DNA of 64,000 bases from Lophium mytilinum (Eukaryota): NCBI GenBank assembly GCA_010093605.1, contig MU004182.1:2341195-2405194 (forward strand), written 5' to 3'. Below are positions 3,046-61,801 of this stretch, in pieces (positions within the stretch are counted from its first letter, which is position 1; each line of letters opens with the position of its first letter). The notes under the pieces were generated by a model, which saw nothing but the letters and a program-made list of their open reading frames with translations, was not told the DNA's origin and did not search any database. Position numbers and translations under genes: made by a program.

Positions 3046-3740
3046 ACCCTCACTACTATACTTTTCTTACTCCCCCCTCCCCCTTCCAACGCAGATTCAA
3101 CCCCCGAACACCCCCCACTCTCTCACTATCTCCACCAGCACTACTAGCACACATGCAGAAATCCATTATTTCCGCGGCCCTGTCCATAATCCCAACACAG
3201 CGCCGATCCCCGCCAACTCGCACCCCCAAGGATTTCAACGAACCCCCGACACCGACCCCAGCCTCATCCCTGACCCGCCACAACCAAATGAGCGCGGAAG
3301 CAAGAACCCGGTCGCTACTGTACCTTGTCCTCAAGCCTGGGCGGGCGATCTGGCAGCTGCCCGATACACCCTGAGGTCCGCTCTTGCCGCAGTGATGGCG
3401 AGATGGGAGACTCGCGTGCGGCGAGGGAGGCAATATCCCACCCCCTTGATCGGGGGGCCTGGAGGTGAGATGGCGTGTCCAGCATCCGGAGCCGCCTTTG
3501 GGGCCTGGGTAGGAGACCGGTCGGCGGTTCGCGTGGCTTGGGGATGGTTGGGTATCGCTTCGGTTGGGTGTTGCCGACCGTTGCGGGTATAGACGGGGTG
3601 GGGTATAGATGGCGAGTAGGACGTTTTCTGGTCGGTGCGGGTGGTGGGGAGAGGCGGCGACGGGTAGGTCGTCGTAGTGGGTTTTGTGAGGGGAGACGTG
3701 GCTTTGGAGATGGAAGTAAGAAAAGTGTAGTAGTGAGGGT
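3046..3740. repeat. 29-bp inverted repeat pair (27/29 match) enclosing ~640 bp
   Basis: 3046-3074 accctcactactatacttttcttactccc versus the reverse complement of 3712-3740, accctcactactacacttttcttacttcc. Confidence 0.8.
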
Positions 3741-6678
3741 TGGATGGGAGGTTGGAGTATGGGGTAGCGACGTGCTAGAGATGACTTTGCGAGCTTTTGA
3801 TGGTGGGTAATGTTATTGGGAGCAATGTAGAGCTGAGAGGGAGAGAGCTAGAAGTGAGTGCTAATTTTTTTTAAAGAGATTATCAAGCTTACTAGACTAG
3901 TAATTAATGTTATCTAGAGAAAGGTAGTTGGATAGGGATCGAGCTAGAAGTGATTACTAGTCTTTGATTCAAAGTTGCCATTAAGCTTCGAGTGTCTCTG
4001 AGGGTACTACTGAAGTGTCGTATATATTCTATTGGCTAAATTGCTTACAGAAGCCGGGGATTTGGTAAAGCATTTCCTATGTATAAGAAGGAGATGATGT
4101 GCCCTCCCTAGGCCGGTTGTAAAGAAGCAACTGAATCTGGACTTATATCAGTAGATTTGTCTTGTTACTGGATTAGCAGGACGCGAAAAGAAGCTACCGT
4201 GTTGATAGTAGCGATGATAGAAGTATTATTGAACCTGAATCGGTGGCCAAGGACAGGACGATAGTAGATGCTTACATCTGCAGAAGGCTTTACACACTCG
4301 CCCTCTCGATTTTTCACACAGCTGGCAAGCCTAGTAAAGAAAGGGAGAGACTGAGGTAGAATCGCCCTCGAGTTTGAAGACGCTCTTAACGACAATTTTA
4401 GTTAGAACACTGAAGGAGAGCACGTAACATTCCCATTAACTTGAAGATCGTCTGTACACCGGCACGCACAGCGACGAACACTCAACAACCCGAACACTAT
4501 GAGCCAAAGAAAGATTCCGAGATGCTCAGTATCGCTCGAGTCTGGGAGAATGCTCACAAGCCAACCCACCTGCCCAACGAACCAGTCTCCCACCACCTCG
4601 CCTGCGGACACCTCGCCCTACCGCGTGAACCCACACCACACATTCTAGACTCACTTCTCTTCTCGCCAACCGCATATCGCTCGTAGTAGTAAAGTCGCAA
4701 AGGCAGCACACCGTTATCTGCGCGCAATATATGAGGCGCGGGTCCAGCCTCGCACTGCATAAATTGTTGATTAAGATGGCTCCATCAATATCGAGTTGAC
4801 TGAGCTACCGCTCTCAATCGGGAAAGACTAATGCATTCGCACTTTACAGCATCTCAACCTAACGCATCAATAGACTATCACAACGCATAGGCTGCCAATG
4901 CACCACGATCATTAGTGTTCTGCATAACTATATTGTAGGAGCGCGAGAGCTAATGCATTGACGCTTTTTAAATTGTGCTGGGGGGATGAAGGAAGGGGTA
5001 TGGATCCTGGTTCCCTGTTTGCTTGCCGTGTGTGTGGCGGCTGCAAGGCCCCGACTTCTGGAATCCATTGGGATCCAGGATTTTGTGTCGCGGCGGCGGT
5101 TTCGTTTCGTGAGACTACTGCAACCCAGGGGCTAAAAATAAAGCCACTCTGCGTTTTCTTGCTTTGTTGATGGTGGTTTGACGATTGCGACGCCCAGCTC
5201 GGGCGACGCGGGAAAAGGGTGAGTTGTTCGTTGCGGTGTGTTGCGGTTGCATGAGGCGATGGATTCATTCCAAACACACGGGTTGAACGGCTGGGTGGGT
5301 GCTAGATGGCCGACCGGGCTTCAAGCAGGTTTCTTACTGATGGAAGATTGCGCATGGCATTTTTGCGTGGACGGGTTTTGGGGGAGTAGAGGCATCCCCC
5401 GCCCGTCGGTGTTGGAGGTTGGACAACCCTTTTTGCGAAAAACGTGGTGTGGCACAGCAGAGAGTGCTTGCTGCAGACTTCGTGAGACAACGGGAGGCAG
5501 GTCGTACCGAGCTCGAGCGCTGTCTCTCCCCCTGACGAGAACGCAGCAAAGAAGAAAGTTGGAAAGACAGTTTTCTCCTAACTCCTGAGGACACAGCCAC
5601 CCATCACCCGCAACTTGCCCTTCCTTCAGCCCTCTCAGGAGTCCGGAAGAAACCCCCTCCCCAACGGTGGAAATTAGACCTTCCGAACACCCCGTTGCCC
5701 TCGCGCGCCGCCGCCCGGCCACCTTCGCCTGCGGGCGGGCGCTGCTCGGCGAAACGTCAAGCATTTGGCGAAGCAACTGGCGTTCGTCTGCGGCGTTCTC
5801 CTTGTGGCGTTGTTACGTTGGTGCTGCTCTCGCTTCCCGGCCAGGGGAGACGGATTGAGCTGTTTTCGGTGGCGCGCGGTTGCTGTTTGGGGTGATCCGG
5901 CGTGCAGTGTGGCGTTTGGCACGCGCGGGGGGTTGACGATAAGCTTTGAGAGGGGGAGGGCGTTGGGATGGGGAGCTGAATGGCTGAACGGCTGAACGGC
6001 TGGATTGGGGGGGTTGAGTTTCGATAGTCAAACGATGGATTATGGGCTGCATTGGGTGGGTAAGTTTCGATAGCAAAGCATAGATTATGGGACGAGATGG
6101 GTTGAGGAAGGTACGCCGCGGCGTGATGGAGCTGTTTGTTTTGGCCTGGGTGTAGTGATGGTGATGTGCCCAGGTGGGTAGGTGTGGGAAGTCTGCTAGG
6201 GATTAGACAGTCGGTGGACTACGAGCTGCTCAAGGAGTCAAGATAGATGGGTAGTGCACGCTTCGAGCACATACGATGGTAAAGACACGATAGTATCGAG
6301 TTGGTAATCACTTCCAAAGCAGATTCGTATGCAAAGAGTAGGGCAGGCATGAAGAAGCATATCGTGATTTGTATGTACACCCTGTAACAACGATGTAATG
6401 TCTCCTCAGCACCCTCTCATCCCCTCTACCTCTCACAGCAAACTCGTGGGTCAAGATGTCCATTTGCCCTCCACGCTCTGTCGTTGAAGACCTCTTCCAC
6501 TAATACAACAGTCTCTAAATGAAAAGTTTTGCGTAGTATGCATGCATATGCGTCGGGGGACATCAAACTCAAAAGAAACAAGACAGCATGTGGAATATTA
6601 AATGGAATTAAAGATTATGCGCCAACGTCCATCCGCCCACTTATGCCCAAGGAGATACGCTGGAAGAGCTGAAATGTT

Positions 6679-52128: not shown

Positions 52129-54217
52129 ATGGACAAGCCGACACTCATCGTAAGACTCAAGTTCACGGAAGGCCCATCCGCTCGATCTCTTCAGCGAATT
52201 CTTGCGATGTCTCCGCCAACCAAACCTTCTGCCGCCGCCGCTGCAGACTCGCCGAACCCTCCGCACGCCCAAGACGGACGCACCGGTCTGGACGAATCTG
52301 CCCTGACACGACGGGCAAGCAGCAGCACGGAGGTCCGATCGAGGACTGAGCCCCGTAACACAGCCAAGCCGAGGAACGTCTCATCAGGGGACAGCGCGTT
52401 TGCTAGTAGCAGAGGTGGAGCGTCGTCATCGGCAAGCGGATACGAAACTGCCAGAATGAATCCATTCAGCGATATGACACACCAAGGTTCCCAGTTGCTG
52501 GATTTGCAGAAGGAAGTGGATGACCTCCGCAACAAGCTCCAAATGAGGGATAACAGCATTCAGAGGAGAGATGAGGAGATTGTCAAGTGCAAGGATGCAA
52601 TCTTGCAGAACAATGCTGGGATGTTTCGCAAGCTTGTTGATACCCGGAAGAAAGACGATGAGATCCAGCAGAAGAACGCCGAGATCCAGCAGAAAGACGC
52701 CGAGATACAGCAGAAAGATGTTGAGATACAGCAAAAGGATGTCGAGATACAGCAGAAGGATATTGAGATACAGCAGAAAGATGTCGAGATACAGCGGAAA
52801 GATGTCCAGATGCAGCAGAAGAATGTTGAGAGACAGGAGAAAGATGTTGAGATACAGCAGAATAATGTTGAGATACAGAGGAAGGACGTTGAGATACGAC
52901 GGAAGGGTGTTGAGATGCAGCAGAAGGATGCTGAGATACGGCACAAGAACGCTGAGATATGGCGAAACGGGGCCAAGATGCATCTGAGCCGTGTTGCCAT
53001 ATACCAGAAGGTCACGAAACTACAGGAGCAGGACACTGAATTACAGAAGAAGGACGCGACACTTCGGAGCAAAGATGCCTATATTCGGCACGAACAGGAC
53101 CAAATGCGACGAAAGGACGAGAGCATCGCCTGCCTGGTCGGCCACGCTTGCAGAACTACTCTTTTTGAAGGTACGTGTAAACCCCGCTAGAAGTCTGGAA
53201 ACTCTTTTGCACAGACTTTTGGCCTCAGCATTCTGTGCGACTGTTTTTCTAATGACCAGAGTAGATCTTCCGCTATTCGTTCAAGGGCTCGCCGCAGAAT
53301 ACCGACCGAAGACCGAGGACCTCGCGATGGGCATCGCCTCCAAAATGGAGATGCTACTGACTTCCCCCACCAATACCACGTGGACCGAAGCATTTGAATT
53401 GGTTCCATCAATCATGCGCCTCCAAGAAGCCAATTCCAATACTCCGTGGAACTTGGTCTGGGAACTACTGATCTACCTAACGGACCTTCTCCAATCAGCC
53501 ACGTCCCCTAATCAACTCGTCGATGGCTCTGCAGACAGAGACCGCTTCGAAGCGCTAGGTGAAGCTCTGACCAAGGCCTTCGTGTGGGCCTCCACCCCGG
53601 AGACCTCGGACCTGACGCACGTCGATTGGCAACAGTGGGCGCGAGACTTCAGAGGCCTAGTTCACAAAGACCTTACGCAGTGGTCTCGTGAGAGCGTCAC
53701 CGTGCGCAAGAACCACCTATACGGGGGTTGCTTATTGGCTGCACGTGAGTGGTATCGCGATACAGCTGTAGAAGATGGCGAGATTACTGACGTGACAGCC
53801 TTCGACAACGCTTTCTTTGACAAATGCGAGTACATAGGACCATGCGACGCGAACGCAGCGTGCCAACGATGGGCTGAGAAGGAGACCGGATGTGGATCAA
53901 TGTGCCCAAATGCGACGCACTCTTGGGAGACTACGCGGAACAAAGAGAAGAAGGAACTAGAAGAGGCAGCTAAAGAGAGAGAGCGGGTGCGGAAGGAGGA
54001 GCTCGAGCAGATCGCTAAGGAGAGAGAGCGTGAGCGGAAGAGGGAGTTGTTGAAGCGGAAGGGGGAGGAAATTGACTCTTACAGGAACAAGGTCGCGAAA
54101 CGTGCAGCCAACGTCCAGAAGGAGGTGGAGGCCCTCGAGGCGGAAAAGAAGGCCCTGGAGGAGCAAGAAGAAGAAATGAGGGTAATTGAGGAAGAGCTTC
54201 ACAAAGCTTCGGATTGA
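52129..54217 (+). CDS. Hypothetical coiled-coil protein with a Gln-rich heptad tandem repeat, helical domain, Cys/His cluster and charged C-terminal coil
   Basis: ORFs 52129-53190 and 52991-54217 join in frame through intron 53171-53285 (GTACGT...CTAAT...AAG), giving TLFE|GLAAEY. Confidence 0.7.
52660..52974 (+). repeat. Coding 21-bp tandem repeat, 15 units (consensus GAGATACAGCAGAARGATGTT = EIQQKDV)
   Basis: Directly visible in the DNA and in the translation, from EIQQKNA to EIWRNGA. Confidence 0.95.
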
Positions 54218-54347
54218 TGGACGGTTTGGGCCTGATTGCGAGTACTTTCACCTACGTATAGCTCCCTTGTAGTTAAAGTAGTACGCAACGAGGAGAATAA
54301 TGTTTAATTATCCAACGAAAGCTGAGCATTATGTGATCCTGCAACAG

Positions 54348-54383
54348 TGCCTCGTCGTATGCCTCGTCGTATGCCTCGTCGTA
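54348..54383. repeat. Perfect 12-bp tandem repeat x3 (tgcctcgtcgta)
   Basis: Three identical consecutive copies. Confidence 0.95.
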
Positions 54384-54514
54384 GGAATTCTTACACTTGT
54401 CTGCCACTATCTGTGGGGCCACGACGTACACATAGACACCGAGGGTGGTGGGTAAAGTTCCACTCTGCGTCCACCCTGTTGACGCTGTGTGGGGTACGGT
54501 ACTGGGCCATAAGT

Positions 54515-55502
54515 TTGGGCCACCAGATTCACTATTGTTTGGCTTTCTTCTTGCTCACCTGATGCCACTAACAAGAGTGGCCCAGCTAGTTTATAGGCAA
54601 TAGGTCAAACAGAAGTCTAATTTACACTGCGTAGAGCTTCCCATCGCACCTAGATATCTAAATATTGTAGACACTGGATTTACTACTATTTAGCTTCACC
54701 TTTGCTCACCTAACGCCACTGACAGGAGTAGCCCAGCTAGTTCGTAGGCAGTGAGCTAAATAGATATCTAATTTACACTGCGTGGAACTTGACATTGCAC
54801 CTAGATGATTAAAAAGTGTAGGCAGAAGATTTACAACTAATCGGCTTTATTTTTGCTCACTTGGTACCACTGTAGGGAGTAGCCCAGCTAGTTCGTAGGC
54901 AGTAAGTTATATAGAAGTCTGATTTATGGTGCGTGGAACTTAACATCGCACCTAGATGTTTGAAAATGTGGGCACGGGATTTAGTACTGCTCGGCTTCAA
55001 TCTTGCTTACTTGACACCACTGTTAGGAGTAGCCCCGCTAGTCCGTACGCAGCGAGTAAAACACAGGTCGGATTTGAACTGCCTAGAACTTGACATCGCN
55101 NNNNNNNNNNNNNNNNNNNNNNNNNNNNNNNNNNNNNNNNNNNNNNNNNNNNNNNNNNNNNNNNNNNNNNNNNNNNNNNNNNNNNNNNNNNNNNNNNNNN
55201 NNNNNNNNNNNNNNNNNNNNNNNNNNNNNNNNNNNNNNNNNNNNNNNNNAGGTCGGATTTGAACTGCCTAGAACTTGACATCGCACCTAGGTTCTTGAAA
55301 CCTTACGGGGGTACTCCACACAGTGCTAAATGAGTGTGTACGGATATCTATAGAATGATACCCCAGTCTGGGCAGAGGCTTTATTACTGTTAGGCTTCAA
55401 TCTTGCTCATTTGATACCACTGTGAGGAGTAGCCCAGCTACTTCGCAGGCAGCGAGTCAAACAGATGTCAGATTTGCACTGCCTAGACCTTAACATCTCA
55501 CC
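54515..55502. repeat. Diverged ~151-bp tandem array, at least 5 units, interrupted by an assembly gap
   Basis: The core gccc(a/c)gcta recurs at 54580, 54731, 54882, 55032 and 55432 (periods 151, 151, 150). Units compared by hand are about 77-82% identical over the 90-nt core. Confidence 0.93.
55100..55249. other. Assembly gap (150 N)
   Basis: Run of N; the 35 nt on its left (55065-55099) are identical to the 35 nt on its right (55250-55284). Confidence 0.99.
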
Positions 55503-57365
55503 TTCCAAGAATGACACCCCTGATCCTCTCCGCCGTAACCACATCCACCAATCCCTCCTCGACCATCCCGCGTAATACCTCATCCACCTCCCCGACCCTC
55601 TCATCAAGACTAACTACTCCACTCTCGTTCTCTTCGATCTCGGCCTTTAACGCTTCTGCAAATGCAGCCTTTACCTCCGCGACCTTAGTCTCTACACTAG
55701 CTCGTACCGCCCAAGCCTTCGCGCCTCGATAGAACACGCCTGCATTCTTGACCAGCACACCCTTCGCGGAAGCTTCACTCGCGATCCGTAGCCGGGCAAG
55801 GTCTACATCCCCTCTGACAAGAAAGATCTCCGCCACCCTAGCCGGCTGCAGCATCTCCACCGAAGCCGGTGCTGTGAGCCGCCCTAGGGATGTCTGCGCT
55901 CGCGAGAGCGCTGTAGCTTGTGCGTTCACACGCTCGGCATCTGGTTCACTGGTTGGAGTTTCCATGAGTGCGGATGCAAATGCGATAAGAGCGTCGGCGT
56001 AGGCAGAGAGAGTATTGACGGTGCTTAGTGTAAGTGCAGTAGTAGACGGAGGGATGAGCGGAGCGAAGGCGGTGGAGAGGTGGGTGGAGTATGTGGCGAA
56101 AGGCAGGAGGCCGCTGCGGTAGGTAGATTCGAGCAGAGCTGCGCGGAATGTGGCAGCGGCGAGGAGAGCGTCATCCTGAATTGGGGTTTGTGGGTCTGAA
56201 GAGGTCACGGGGGCTATAGAGAGTGATAACGAGGGGCCGGTAGGATTCTGGGGCTCTAACGAGGGTGCGGGAAGAAGCGAGATATATTGGGGGATCTTGA
56301 TTGTGATGAGCGGGGTGGCGATGTCCGAGAGACGATCTAAAGTCGACGCATCTGCTGGAACTGAGAGGCTGACGAGTGTTGACAGTGAATTGAGATGCGC
56401 CACGGCAGTTTCGAGGAGGTCTGATGGGGTGACGGGTTCCAGAACCGTTGCCCAGTCTCCTGGAAGTTCCGAAGATGTGGATGATGTTTCCATAGCGTCT
56501 GATGCAGTTTCTGCCGCGGGCGAAGATGGATCGATTAGGACCCCTCCGTCTGCCTCCTGGGCCTTTGCTTCCTCGATCTGCTGTAGCATCTCGGAGTGAT
56601 CCTGTTCCTGCCGGGCAAGACAATCAGAGAACATTTGGACAGCTTCTTTCAGAAATGACTTCGCTATTGCCTTGTTCGGCTCAGCATCTGCATCCGTCTT
56701 TGAACTTTCAATGAGTGACTCGGCCAGCGATGTGAGCACTTGTCCCATGTTAAACTGAACGTCGGCATTGTCCGGATTGAGATTTAGAGCTAGCCGATGC
56801 GATTCCAGTGTGCCATATAGCAGATCTAGGATGTCGCCTAGTTGCGATGCTAGGCGAGCGTCTTGGGTCAGTTGATATTCGAGATTCGCCCTGGTTTGGT
56901 TAGGTATGGAAGTCATGAATGGATGTCTTTTGCGTTTACGAGAAGAACACGATAACAAAAAAGGATAGAGAGCTCAAACTTAACAAGGCTAGAGAGGCGT
57001 TGATCCTCATTTTTGTGCAACAAGACATGGATTAAATGAAGAAGAAAAGCGCTGCTCACTTGTTATAAGCTAGATCAAAAGACTTCGGAAATCTCTTCAG
57101 CCCTTCATCATAGGCATCAATCGCTCTCTGAAAAAATCTCAAAGATTTTGCTGCATCGCCAGCCCTCCATTTACCCCCAGATTGTTCATGCTCATCCGCC
57201 GCTTCCAGAAAGTCGTTCTCGCTTTCAGGAGTCTGCCTATATCGTCAGTCTATCCCGCAGTAGCATATTTTGTGATGCGCGTGATGAGGGAAGAACCCGC
57301 ACCTTTGGTTGTCTTTTGCTTTGCTTGGAGATGTTTTTCAAAACGTCTCTGCGTTTTGGTGGCAT
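55498..57365 (-). CDS. Conserved fungal TPR-like protein (UPF0656-like)
   Basis: Spliced model MPPKRRDVLKN...|TPESENDFLEAADEHEQSGGKWRAGDAAKSLRFFQRAIDAY...FDLAYNK|ANLEYQL...NPDNADVQFNMGQVLTSLAE. The family label is from recall. Confidence 0.75.
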
Positions 57366-58431
57366 TGTGAGGTTGATGTACAAAGGTAGTGACGAAACCT
57401 TCCAGGTCCGGCTTGCGGATAGTTTTTGGTGGCATTCTTTCAGAGACGTGTGATTGGTTGGATTCTCACGCGGAGCAGTACGGGCAGGTTCTATTTGAAC
57501 TAAGGCAAATGACCCTGATGCACGTTATTCTGATCGGGATGAGGATTCTATCTGTTGATCTTGCCCACTCATTGAAAATTCTAGAAGCGCTTTTCTGATA
57601 CCAATTGAGGTCTTGCAGATCACGTGATGCTGCCAAAGTCATCTTCAAGCATATCTGCCAACTCTGTGCGAGGAATACTTCTACGCTTATTAGTACTCTA
57701 AAAAGATACAATGGAGGTCACTGGATGAGGATTGCCAGACAACATCAGCTGGGTTTAGACATCCACGTGATATTGACTGGGTTTTTCTTCTTAGTCATTC
57801 GGCTCCTCCAACCTAGACACCTTTTCATCCACACATCAACTTGTCTCTCCTCAGCTGAAGCACCCCAATACCGATATCGAACCGTGGGAGATGCCCGAGA
57901 TCGCGAGCGGTCCGGCCGCCCCGATGAAATGTCCGTAGGGCTGGTGTAGTACCATCCTATGTATGTACGGTGACAAGCCACAATTCTGGCACACTGGCTC
58001 TCCACTGCTTTGGGGTTCCCCCACAAGATCATGAAGACGACATCATTTCCTCCATATCCTTCCTCAGGTTGAAGACAAAAAGGGTGATATTCCGTCCATT
58101 TCATTACACTGGGTAGCCGCTGTATGAGGTGTCCCGGTGTGTCACTAGCTCTTCAAAATAATGAAATGTGTAATTCTCAGAGTACCTCGAGGGACCTCAA
58201 ACAGTGGCAAACAAGTAGAATAGACATATTTTTGACGAGTACATCTGCCTTTCCGGTGCAATCTCTCTGATACCAAATCGAGTAGTTGACTACGAGCATG
58301 AAGTTGCTAAATTATAGCATTCACTTATTGATATTCCGAATGACTAATAGAGCACAGCCTGCAAACCTTGGAACAATCCGGTTGGTCGCGCTCCCAGGAA
58401 CCACAGAACACAACGCCAGACAACCGCAACG

Positions 58432-59718
58432 ATGTCCCTCAATCAGCTCTCTCCTGAGCTGTGCCACATGGTGATAGAGCTCCTTCCTATTGCTGACAGA
58501 TGCAGTCTGGCTCTCACCTCGAAGCACTACGTCGAGCTACTTTTTTCGAGCTTCCACAACCGGGTATACATAACAAAGCGAAATGAAACCGCGCTGAGTA
58601 AGCTTGTGCACAAGCTGGTGATCGACCCAGACCTAAGAGACAAGATTCGAGGTATTGACTTTATGGAAAGTCATGATGCGGAGTGGCGTGAAGACACCGA
58701 CGAAGTAGAGCTGGGAGTCAAATTCCCAGACTACAGCCCCGCGGATATGAGGCAACTCCTGAAGATCGTTCAGGAAACACGACCGAAAATTCTTGCGAAT
58801 GCCGTCAAGATTCTCGTCATGGACGTCATCGCAGGGCAGTGGGACGCCATGGTGGCAGTCGTCTTGGGATTGACAAAAAAAGTTGAAGAAGTCCGCCTTC
58901 GTACCAGAACCGATACCGAGCACCTCGAGAATCTATTCATCAATCGAGACCTACTACCTGCACTCGCGCATTTCGATTTCCAGTACAGACGGTCCACGGG
59001 TATACCGGCTATAGTCATCCCCGCCACCAAGTCGATTCGCACCCTCTTCGCTAGGAATGTCCTTTTGAGAGACGTAAATCCACTAGACCTTAGCGCAGTC
59101 AAAGAACTGAAGCTCTTTGGGACCCGTTTCGGGGCAGGTGCCGGCCCCTCTTCCCAAGTCGTCCAGGGCCGCCTTGATCAGCTTGAGTCTTTGCAGATCT
59201 ACGATACTGGCTTGTTCGATGGAAACGAGTGGTGCATGATCAGTGGCAGGCTGAACACCGCGGCGAAGTTGAAGACTTTGGATATTCGCGGAAACCAGTG
59301 TGTGACGGCACATACCCAATTCCGCCAAGGCCTGATACAAGTCTGCTCCTTAGGACAGATACGCTTTCTCGGAATCTCAGTCCACCAGATAGCGAATCAT
59401 CCATCAACGGCTGGAGATCTTCTCGAGATTGTTCCCCAATCTATCGAAGTCCTGAAGGTCTACGTCGTGAACAAACAGAATTATTGGAAGACTTTCATGA
59501 GAGGAATGAAGCAGCTCAAGGAAAACTACGACAAATCTAACTTCCTGAACCTGATGAGCATCAGCATCTGCTTTGTCCAGCCTGCAGACGAGAACGTTCA
59601 GCTGGCCAACATGGTGAGCGATATTGGTGTGCTAAAGAATGATTGGGTTGGGAGCAAAGTCTGCTTCGAGGCAGTCAGATCGGTTCCCGGTCAGGCACAA
59701 GCGAACCTATTGATGTGA
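58432..59718 (+). CDS. F-box-like protein with a degenerate LRR-like C-terminal region
   Basis: Intronless 428-aa ORF. N-terminal LNQLSPELCHMVIELLPIADRCSLALTSK fits the F-box pattern; repeated LxxLxL/I segments (VKELKL, LESLQI, LKTLDI, IEVLKV). Confidence 0.7.
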   Translation: MSLNQLSPELCHMVIELLPIADRCSLALTSKHYVELLFSSFHNRVYITKRNETALSKLVHKLVIDPDLRDKIRGIDFMESHDAEWREDTDEVELGVKFPDYSPADMRQLLKIVQETRPKILANAVKILVMDVIAGQWDAMVAVVLGLTKKVEEVRLRTRTDTEHLENLFINRDLLPALAHFDFQYRRSTGIPAIVIPATKSIRTLFARNVLLRDVNPLDLSAVKELKLFGTRFGAGAGPSSQVVQGRLDQLESLQIYDTGLFDGNEWCMISGRLNTAAKLKTLDIRGNQCVTAHTQFRQGLIQVCSLGQIRFLGISVHQIANHPSTAGDLLEIVPQSIEVLKVYVVNKQNYWKTFMRGMKQLKENYDKSNFLNLMSISICFVQPADENVQLANMVSDIGVLKNDWVGSKVCFEAVRSVPGQAQANLLM

Positions 59719-59722
59719 TTGG

Positions 59723-59825
59723 CTTGCTCACTGGATACCACTGTTGGGGGTAGCCTGGCTGCTCAACAGCCAATGAGTCAAGAAGCAGTCCAACTTACAC
59801 TGCTTGAACCTCGACAACACCCTTG
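59723..59825. repeat. Solo diverged copy of the 151-bp array unit, in the same orientation
   Basis: cttgctcactggataccactgttgggggtagcc...ttacactgc aligns without gaps to the array units; 57/90 identical to the unit at 54706-54795 by hand count. Confidence 0.85.
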
Positions 59826-60207
59826 GATAATGAAAGATAGGGTCTAGGGCGCGGAAGAGAATTCATGGAATCGAGAAGGATGTTTGTCGTAGCGAATGAT
59901 GACATTGCCTGGCTTGCGGGGTGCATAGGATGAACATTTCGTGCCATAACCAACCTTTCGCACCATCTTCAACAGCCAGAAACCGTGAAGGTGATCATAA
60001 ACCATATACAAACATATTTAATCAAGGAGAATAGTCTGTGAGATTCTTGAGAGGAGAGTCGTCACTTCATTGAAATAGAGAAGGCCACTATACTACACAC
60101 GGAAAAGTTGGCTCAAGACTGCTGAAGTAGAGTTCAGAAGGAACAGCCGAGACCACGCCCTGGGAAACCTATAACGCCGTGGACCACTACTTTTAGTATC
60201 CCTCCTC

Positions 60208-61376: not shown

Positions 61377-61685
61377 CGTTGCAATCTGGAGATGTGAAGG
61401 CAGGTTAGGTAGCTCGGTTGTGCGACCTTGGTGTCTCGTACAACCAATAAGTAGTTAAGCATTTCAAGAGGATACTGTGTCAAGGTCGATCAATCTAGTT
61501 CCGGGCGTGCATGCATTGATGTTAGATGTCAGCAAGGATGCCGATGGTTGCCGGGTGGCAGGTGGTTCGTCATCATCCAACAAAGGACCCTAGTCGCACT
61601 ACCGCATCTAGATCGTGGTACACATTACAAAGGTGACGGGATTTACAAGTTGATTAAATATACTATCCCTAACAACCCATCAATC

Positions 61686-61801
61686 AACCATTGGAAGGTT
61701 ATCAAACCAACCATCGGAAGATCATTAAACCCTCCATTGAAAGATCATAAACCAGTCGCTGAAAAATCATTAACCAGTCATTGGAAACCCATCAGCCAAC
61801 C
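61686..61801. repeat. Degenerate 22-23-bp minisatellite, about 5 units
   Basis: aaccattggaaggttatcaaacc / aaccatcggaagatcattaaacc / ctccattgaaagatcataaacc / agtcgctgaaaaatcattaacc / agtcattggaaacccatcagcc. Confidence 0.75.

Follow-up and report, generated by a model that had tools for sequence, protein, structure and literature searches.

The window analysed here is a stretch of 64,000 nucleotides from Lophium mytilinum (GenBank assembly GCA_010093605.1, contig MU004182.1, positions 2,341,195 to 2,405,194 of the forward strand), and all positions below are those of the window. Between 54500 and 55504 it carries a tandem array of 150-151-bp units arranged head to tail. Two convergent genes flank the array: on the plus strand a gene ending at 54217, and on the minus strand an open reading frame (ORF) with a TPR-like product, at 55498-56973, which directly abuts the last unit. 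The array is made up of an element of ~135-150 bp, in five units as assembled and perhaps six or seven in all, and single or partial copies of the same element lie at many other places in the genome.

Layout of the array and its minus-strand frames

An earlier reading of the DNA sequence alone (the sequence-only reading) had described the locus as a 151-bp tandem array whose units each carry a 29-codon micro-ORF, with intron-like spacers between them. The tandem arrangement is confirmed by Tandem Repeats Finder (54575-55099, period 151, 3.5 copies, 76% matches, score 535) and by a repeat search that placed five copies in register. These copies start at 54517, 54668, 54819, 54969 and 55369, with start-to-start distances of 151, 151, 150 and 400, and are 68-83% identical to the reference copy. 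An nhmmer profile built from the units matched them at E-values of 1e-44 to 1e-50 per unit, and a 19-nt pattern from the core of the unit was located 5 times in the window, where 0.00 occurrences would be expected. The array itself is beyond chance. At its left edge, unit 1 resembles the upstream consensus of other genomic copies (a loose-end consensus before 54986, compared by eye).

Positions 55100-55249 consist of 150 N, an assembly gap within the array. Identical stretches of 35 bases flank the gap on both sides, and the contigs assembled from two public DNA runs also end there. A separate DNA contig of 210 nt, in which one unit end is linked to a unit start by a different spacer, may be a further unit. 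Because of the gap and this contig, the true number of units may be one or two higher than the assembled number. The spacer lengths given by the sequence-only reading hold for the spacers of 59-60 nt, but the gap had gone unnoticed, and the fourth spacer of 124 nt was built across it since the run of N lies inside the array. To the right of the gap, the extra sequence of this long spacer includes an inverted partial copy of the core, in which 55308-55328 is 86% complementary to 55415-55435.

The five minus-strand translations given in the sequence-only reading were reproduced letter for letter, including the internal TAA and the terminal stops, which vary between TGA and TAA. The 90-nt frames from ATG to stop are present (Table 1), but the ATG is not a boundary, because the frames are open upstream of it and measure 32-49 codons from stop to stop. 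The reported GTGAGC or GTAAGC and CTAG do delimit three spacers of 59-60 nt on the minus strand; unit 6 has ATGAGC instead of GTGAGC at the donor position. In unit 6, the minus strand reads TGAGATG at 55494-55500, with a single base between the TGA of the TPR-like ORF and the ATG of the micro-ORF. The usual GGTGCGATG of the element is replaced by GGTGAGATG at this position, and the stop codon of the TPR-like gene therefore falls inside the stretch that aligns with the element.

Table 1. Features of the array, the adjoining stop codon and the solo copy, in window positions
Feature	Position	Strand	Basis
Unit 1 (leftmost)	54500-54671		nhmmer 54503-54670, E 2.4e-48; repeat search
90-nt frame, unit 1, internal TAA	54555-54644	-	translation
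Unit 2	54672-54822		repeat search; nhmmer
90-nt frame, unit 2, intact	54706-54795	-	translation
Unit 3, 150 bp; minus frame open throughout, 49 codons	54823-54972		repeat search; nhmmer
90-nt frame, unit 3, intact	54857-54946	-	translation
Unit 4, truncated by the gap	54973-55099		repeat search; nhmmer
90-nt frame, unit 4, intact, stop TAA	55007-55096	-	translation
Assembly gap of 150 N	55100-55249		sequence; DNA contig breaks
Unit tail right of the gap	55250-55300		nhmmer 55250-55300, E 3.7e-11
Extra sequence of the long spacer, with inverted partial core copy	55301-55354		weak minus-strand nhmmer match, E 0.53
Unit 6 (last); adjoins and overlaps the TPR-like gene stop	55355-55504		nhmmer 55355-55504; RNA contig
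90-nt frame, unit 6, intact; ATG one base past the TPR-like gene stop, in the 3′ untranslated region	55407-55496	-	translation; RNA contig
Native TGA stop of the TPR-like gene	55498-55500	-	orthologue and annotated protein ends
Solo copy, same orientation as the array; overlaps the stop of an F-box-like ORF	59708-59838		blastn; nhmmer E 2.2e-17, 131 nt

Dispersed copies and transcription of the element

A solo copy of the element lies elsewhere in the window (Table 1). The unit profile matches it over 131 nt, spanning the core and most of the ‘spacer’. The spacers therefore belong to the repeated element, and the earlier treatment of them as separate sequence does not stand; what reads as GT...AG ‘spacers’ is no more than the less conserved ends of that element. 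The corresponding minus frame of the solo copy (59817-59728) starts from TTG instead of ATG; it is still open and has retained the stop.

Contigs from four public runs were aligned to positions 53100-57000. Two of the runs are DNA from one sample (X1 and X2), probably the source of the DNA of the window, one is RNA (X3), and the last (X4) contributed only two 151-nt pieces, from the neighbouring gene. The DNA contigs gave 87 records in this region, 81 of them fitting only in part, and the records less than 90% alike numbered 70 of 87 in X1 and 71 in X2. A T>C difference at 55415 is carried by 18 DNA contigs and an A>G difference at 55028 by 10-12. The core of the element was found in at least 18 other DNA contigs and in 10 RNA contigs of the same species. 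These contig counts and variants indicate that the core is present at some tens of other loci, mostly in diverged form, and the flanks of the other core copies continue into unlike sequence. A metagenome scan with the core pattern returned 118 loci. In a blastn comparison of the units with all 118, nothing matched past the 19-24-nt pattern itself, and these loci are therefore chance matches.

One X3 contig skips a 94-nt GT..AG intron at 53168/53263, which identifies X3 as RNA; none of the runs is registered as such. A second X3 contig, of 1686 nt, covers 55340-56890 with 0 differences and 0 gaps. The TPR-like mRNA is therefore colinear with the genome across its stop codon and the whole of unit 6, and the ‘micro-ORF’ at 55496-55407 consequently lies in the 3′ untranslated region (UTR). 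Unit 6 is thus transcribed, unspliced, as the 3′ UTR of the TPR-like gene. The contig ends at 55340, ~158 nt beyond the stop, and unit 6 makes up most of the 3′ UTR that it covers, with the proviso that contig ends do not mark true RNA ends. Other copies of the element also occur in transcripts, since the variant at 55415 in the core was seen in 10 RNA contigs. For units 1-4 (54500-55099), the RNA contigs gave no exact match, only pieces with 10-14 differences that come from other copies. Splice junctions that remove the spacers, which the sequence-only reading had proposed to look for, are absent from the X3 contigs; between 53100 and 57000 the RNA shows a single joint, which belongs to the 94-nt intron of the neighbouring gene, and unit 6, alone in being covered by an exact RNA contig, is colinear.

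The TPR-like ORF matches a 542-residue NCBI protein of Lophium mytilinum at 100% identity, and a Mytilinidion resinicola protein that is 84% identical ends at the same position. Because both proteins stop there, the stop codon of the TPR-like gene is native. In Pfam, the ORF gave a sub-threshold TPR match only. Read-through of the TPR-like gene into the array was considered and dropped, as an in-frame stop follows after 4 codons (by eye).

The solo copy adjoins an F-box-like ORF (58351-59718). Behind the TGA of this ORF (59716-59718), the plus frame stays open for 42 codons (59719-59847). By eye, the final ~40 nt of the ORF are similar to the left portion of the element, and for this reason the C-terminus of the F-box-like protein may derive from the element.

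Divergence and classification of the element

In the 90-nt core, neighbouring units differ at 16-19 positions (23 between units 3 and 4) and distant units at up to 29. The greater similarity of neighbours fits local tandem duplication, which predicts it. The array has a GC content of 0.44 and a TpA/ApT ratio of 1.60. Among 209 windows of 600 bp that served for comparison, this ratio had a median of 0.70 and a 95th percentile of 1.03. The value of the array lies above every scanned window, the maximum being 1.53 in a window that overlaps the array. The ratio (CpA+TpG)/(ApC+GpT) is 1.00 in the array against a window median of 1.22. Columns of the unit alignment that vary between G and A follow a T in 14 of 24 cases, compared with 2 of 14 for invariant G columns, a bias seen on one strand only.

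Its low GC content, high TpA/ApT and excess of variable TpG/TpA sites liken the array to Dothideomycetes repeats mutated by repeat-induced point mutation (RIP). It is unlike them in its transition:transversion ratio relative to the consensus, which is only 2:1, and in the lack of a CpA bias at C/T-variable sites (6/19 vs 6/18). Because of these two differences, RIP is at most a contributor. The RIP index suggested by the sequence-only reading is high as far as TpA/ApT is concerned, but is not accompanied by the CpA bias. On the composition of the array, RIP-like mutation probably contributed to the divergence of the units and does not account for all of it. The transposable element (TE) copies of Lophium mytilinum are reported to have a bimodal divergence distribution (PMC12910237). 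Elsewhere in the window, the 600-bp windows at 3301-4500 have TpA/ApT ratios of 1.16-1.38, the highest after the array, and (CpA+TpG)/(ApC+GpT) ratios of 0.87-0.97.

Searches for known element or RNA classes were negative. ARAGORN found 0 tRNA genes, and the best Rfam match had an E-value of 3. Eight folds covering both strands gave z-scores of -1.48 to +0.46, none of them indicating a stable fold, and the folds of the consensus, at -14.4 and -11.9 kcal/mol, are weak with almost no covariation. No inverted repeats were found at the unit ends, such as would mark a miniature inverted-repeat transposable element (MITE). A and B boxes in this order were not found either; a word resembling a B box occurs in one unit only, where it lies upstream of the word resembling an A box (by eye).

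Origin of the array and alternative readings

We consider that the array consists of non-coding copies of a dispersed satellite-like element, locally amplified and subject to RIP-like decay, and put the probability of this reading at roughly 75%. Among the four alternatives listed in the sequence-only reading, a nucleosome-sized satellite, as a non-coding repeat, comes closest to the evidence. It is incomplete in that the unit is also dispersed, as the solo copy and the many contigs indicate. In a plausible course of events, one copy would have inserted in the short interval between the two convergent genes, at the stop of the TPR-like gene. Unequal crossing-over or slippage could then have amplified it locally, and the units would have diverged to ~75-80% identity, partly by RIP-like TpG-to-TpA transitions. 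For the 29-codon frames, the likeliest explanation is a chance or relic frame of the founder element, passed on to its tandem descendants. The array can be explained without any function; at most, the proximal unit provides the TPR-like gene with 3′-UTR sequence.

Several observations weigh against this reading. The element could not be assigned to a class. At both of its loci in the window, in convergent intergenic regions, it touches the stop codon of a gene, which is unexpected for purely random insertion (rough post-hoc chance ~0.01). Across the six window copies, that is, the array and the solo copy, the minus frame has 1 internal stop and keeps the stop position in 6/6 and the ATG in 5/6. 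Only 64 of 20,000 neutral simulations retained the frame as well (start in at least 5/6, stop in 6/6, at most 1 internal stop), a figure that is too lenient toward a signal because the simulations, run from the consensus, assumed a star tree and uniform rates. Frame retention is only marginally above chance. The pooled Nei-Gojobori ratio of nonsynonymous to synonymous substitution rates (dN/dS) is lower in the minus frame, at 0.33, than in any of the other five, and 17 of 2000 column shuffles reach this value (uncorrected for six frames). Without the solo copy it is reached by 142 of 2000, and the minus-frame signal is not robust. The antisense plus frame has a dN/dS of 0.35, reached by 20 of 2000 shuffles; it shares the signal because the third positions of the two frames coincide. 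The comparison of dN/dS in both frames, which the sequence-only reading had called for, thus returned low values in either frame, but the signal weakens once the solo copy is left out. The third-position counts that it had made by hand are right (10 of 21 differences between the frames starting at 54706 and 55407, 5 of 18 between those at 54706 and 54857). Taken together, the coding evidence is weak and contradictory.

These figures bear most directly on the possibility that each unit is a gene for a 29-residue Cys-containing peptide, and the dispersed copies a micropeptide family. An ATG, 29 codons and a stop are found in 4 of the 5 array units, and the open frame and stop of the solo copy, the dN/dS of 0.33 and the frame retention can be counted in its favour. 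Against it, the GC contents of the minus frame by codon position (0.32/0.56/0.54) show a GC1 below GC2, the reverse of four host genes (0.57-0.64/0.35-0.47/0.55-0.64). The frames extend upstream of their ATG, which is missing from the solo copy; unit 1 is interrupted by an internal stop, and the frame of unit 6 begins one base after a 542-codon ORF ends on the same mRNA. The frame is also broken in other copies. A genomic copy that is 91% alike has a net insertion of 1 nt in the core, and a consensus of 5-8 further copies, read by hand, shows CTAATGAG in place of CCAATGAG or a similar sequence in the window, which places a TAG at codon 16. One RNA contig has a TGA at codon 9 (by hand), and a further copy compared by hand with unit 6 shows 5, 5 and 1 differences at codon positions 1, 2 and 3 among the 11 listed of 19. 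The sequence-only reading had named frequent core breaks in other genomic copies among the marks of an ordinary degenerate satellite; such breaks are seen in the form of the 1-nt insertion, the TTG for ATG, the TAG and the TGA, but the minus frame is intact in 4 of the 6 window copies. Neither candidate peptide has a Pfam match, and the alignment of the minus-frame peptides gave 0 matches among proteins of 15-86 and 87-2000 residues in a word-based, less sensitive search. The micropeptide proposal of the sequence-only reading thus retains a weak hint from dN/dS and retention, but codon-position GC, broken frames, the lack of relatives in these protein searches and the 3′-UTR location of the proximal unit make it very unlikely. 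The same low probability attaches to a mobile family with a conserved 29-codon Cys-containing small ORF, translated from its own transcripts or by re-initiation behind host stops; if it were true, a micropeptide or a ready-made 3′ end would have been spread to many genes. That the cores are instead 91-nt exon cassettes with short introns between them, spliced into a coding or non-coding RNA, is scarcely credible. Three of the spacers do begin with GTGAGC or GTAAGC and end with CTAG, and 59-60 nt is a usual length for fungal introns. However, an exact RNA contig exists for unit 6 alone, and there RNA and genome are colinear; the donor position of this unit reads ATGAGC; branch-point-like CTRAY motifs are poor or misplaced (by eye), exons of 91 nt cannot be joined in frame, and the ‘introns’ are homologous to the ends of the element at the solo copy. 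This proposal of the sequence-only reading found no support.

The plus strand offers another candidate, a relic of a coding sequence (HLxPLxGVAQLVRRQ.VK..SDLHCLELD), maybe a gene piece or part of a mobile-element protein, that has since decayed. Substitutions, counted as minimum numbers by phase, are ordered position 3 > 1 > 2 (28:21:17) as expected for it, but this periodicity is not significant in our chi-square test. Its dN/dS and its GC by position, which is host-like (derived, as positions 1 and 2 complement positions 2 and 1 of the minus frame), speak for it, as do the 61 open codons of the plus frame in unit 4, several stops at sites that read CGA or CAA/CAG in other copies, and the RIP-like variable columns. 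On the other hand, the plus frame contains 8 stops in 6 copies, and the stop in column 16 looks ancestral because the solo copy and the consensus of other genomic copies share it. A HMMER search with the 61-residue plus-frame translation against 1.84 billion proteins gave 0 matches at E up to 0.001, and Pfam gave none. We regard this decayed plus-strand repeat, another of the earlier alternatives, as quite unlikely: its dN/dS and host-like GC remain in its favour, but the stops and the lack of a protein relative do not fit. A function at the level of RNA ends has also to be weighed. The element could be a mobile supplier of 3′ UTRs, of polyadenylation or termination signals or of a spacer between convergent genes, and be kept for that purpose. 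The position of both window loci, one overlapping the stop of the TPR-like gene and the other that of the F-box-like ORF, would be explained, and so would the share of unit 6 in the covered 3′ UTR and the core in 10 RNA contigs. But the two genes meet opposite ends of the element, in opposite orientations, the contig ends are not proof of true RNA ends, and there is no conserved structure. Short elements often persist in UTRs because insertions there are tolerated, which counts against such a role as well. We consider a functional 3′-end module unlikely and favour non-coding copies of a dispersed satellite-like element.

This favoured reading has parallels in known systems. The TCAST-like elements of Tribolium are described as short arrays of ~150-bp units and single monomers in gene-rich euchromatin (PMC3411249; review PMC10048060). 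The element resembles such dispersed satellite-like repeats in its near-nucleosome-size monomer, in the combination of a short array with isolated monomers, in its location by or inside transcribed genes and in being probably non-coding. It differs from the TCAST-like repeats in that its host is a filamentous ascomycete, in its copy number, which is in the tens and not that of a major satellite, in having no known link to a centromeric array, and in its strongly diverged units, which are ~75-80% identical. Similarly, it is short, non-autonomous, dispersed, present in UTRs and able to seed arrays, like TE-born satellites and MITEs (PMC5932611, PMC12628747, PMC9659126). Unlike MITEs, it has no terminal inverted repeats or hairpin, and no known partner element. 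The tRNA-derived short interspersed nuclear elements (SINEs) of fungi, for instance Mg-SINE of Magnaporthe, are ~100-500 bp long, dispersed and often found within transcripts. The element is like these in size, dispersal and presence in transcripts, and unlike them in having no tRNA-like part by ARAGORN and Rfam and no A-rich tail. Kex2-processed repeat proteins and ustiloxin-type precursors of ribosomally synthesized and post-translationally modified peptides (RiPPs) are encoded by single ORFs in which a signal peptide is combined with in-frame repeats. The array recalls fungal repeat-peptide precursors in that its tandem repeats could each give a short peptide. It differs from them in the stop in every unit, in a period of 151 that is not a multiple of 3, and in the lack of a signal peptide or dibasic processing sites (by eye). 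A RiPP or Kex2-type precursor was dropped because of these stops, and a pheromone precursor because no CAAX end is present.

The element family appears undescribed; among the titles listed under the species name ‘Lophium mytilinum’ none is about the repeat, and that search was not aimed at fungal small-ORF repeats. The importance of the array beyond annotation is small. It does carry a lesson for the search for small genes, in that a chance or relic frame inherited by all tandem descendants can mimic a conserved micro-gene. Searching genome and RNA for further copies resolves such micro-gene look-alikes.

Other tandem repeats occur in and around the locus. The plus-strand gene beside the array, whose intron at 53169-53262 (94 nt) is confirmed by an RNA contig, contains at 52649-52982 an in-frame 21-nt tandem repeat that encodes 7 residues (KDVEIQQ-like) in ~14 copies, with a higher order of 63 nt. 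Between the 3′ end of this gene and the array, a 12-nt unit is repeated perfectly three times at 54348-54383 (TGCCTCGTCGTA). A degenerate 22-23-nt tandem repeat (4.9 copies, 73% matches) lies at 61678-61786.

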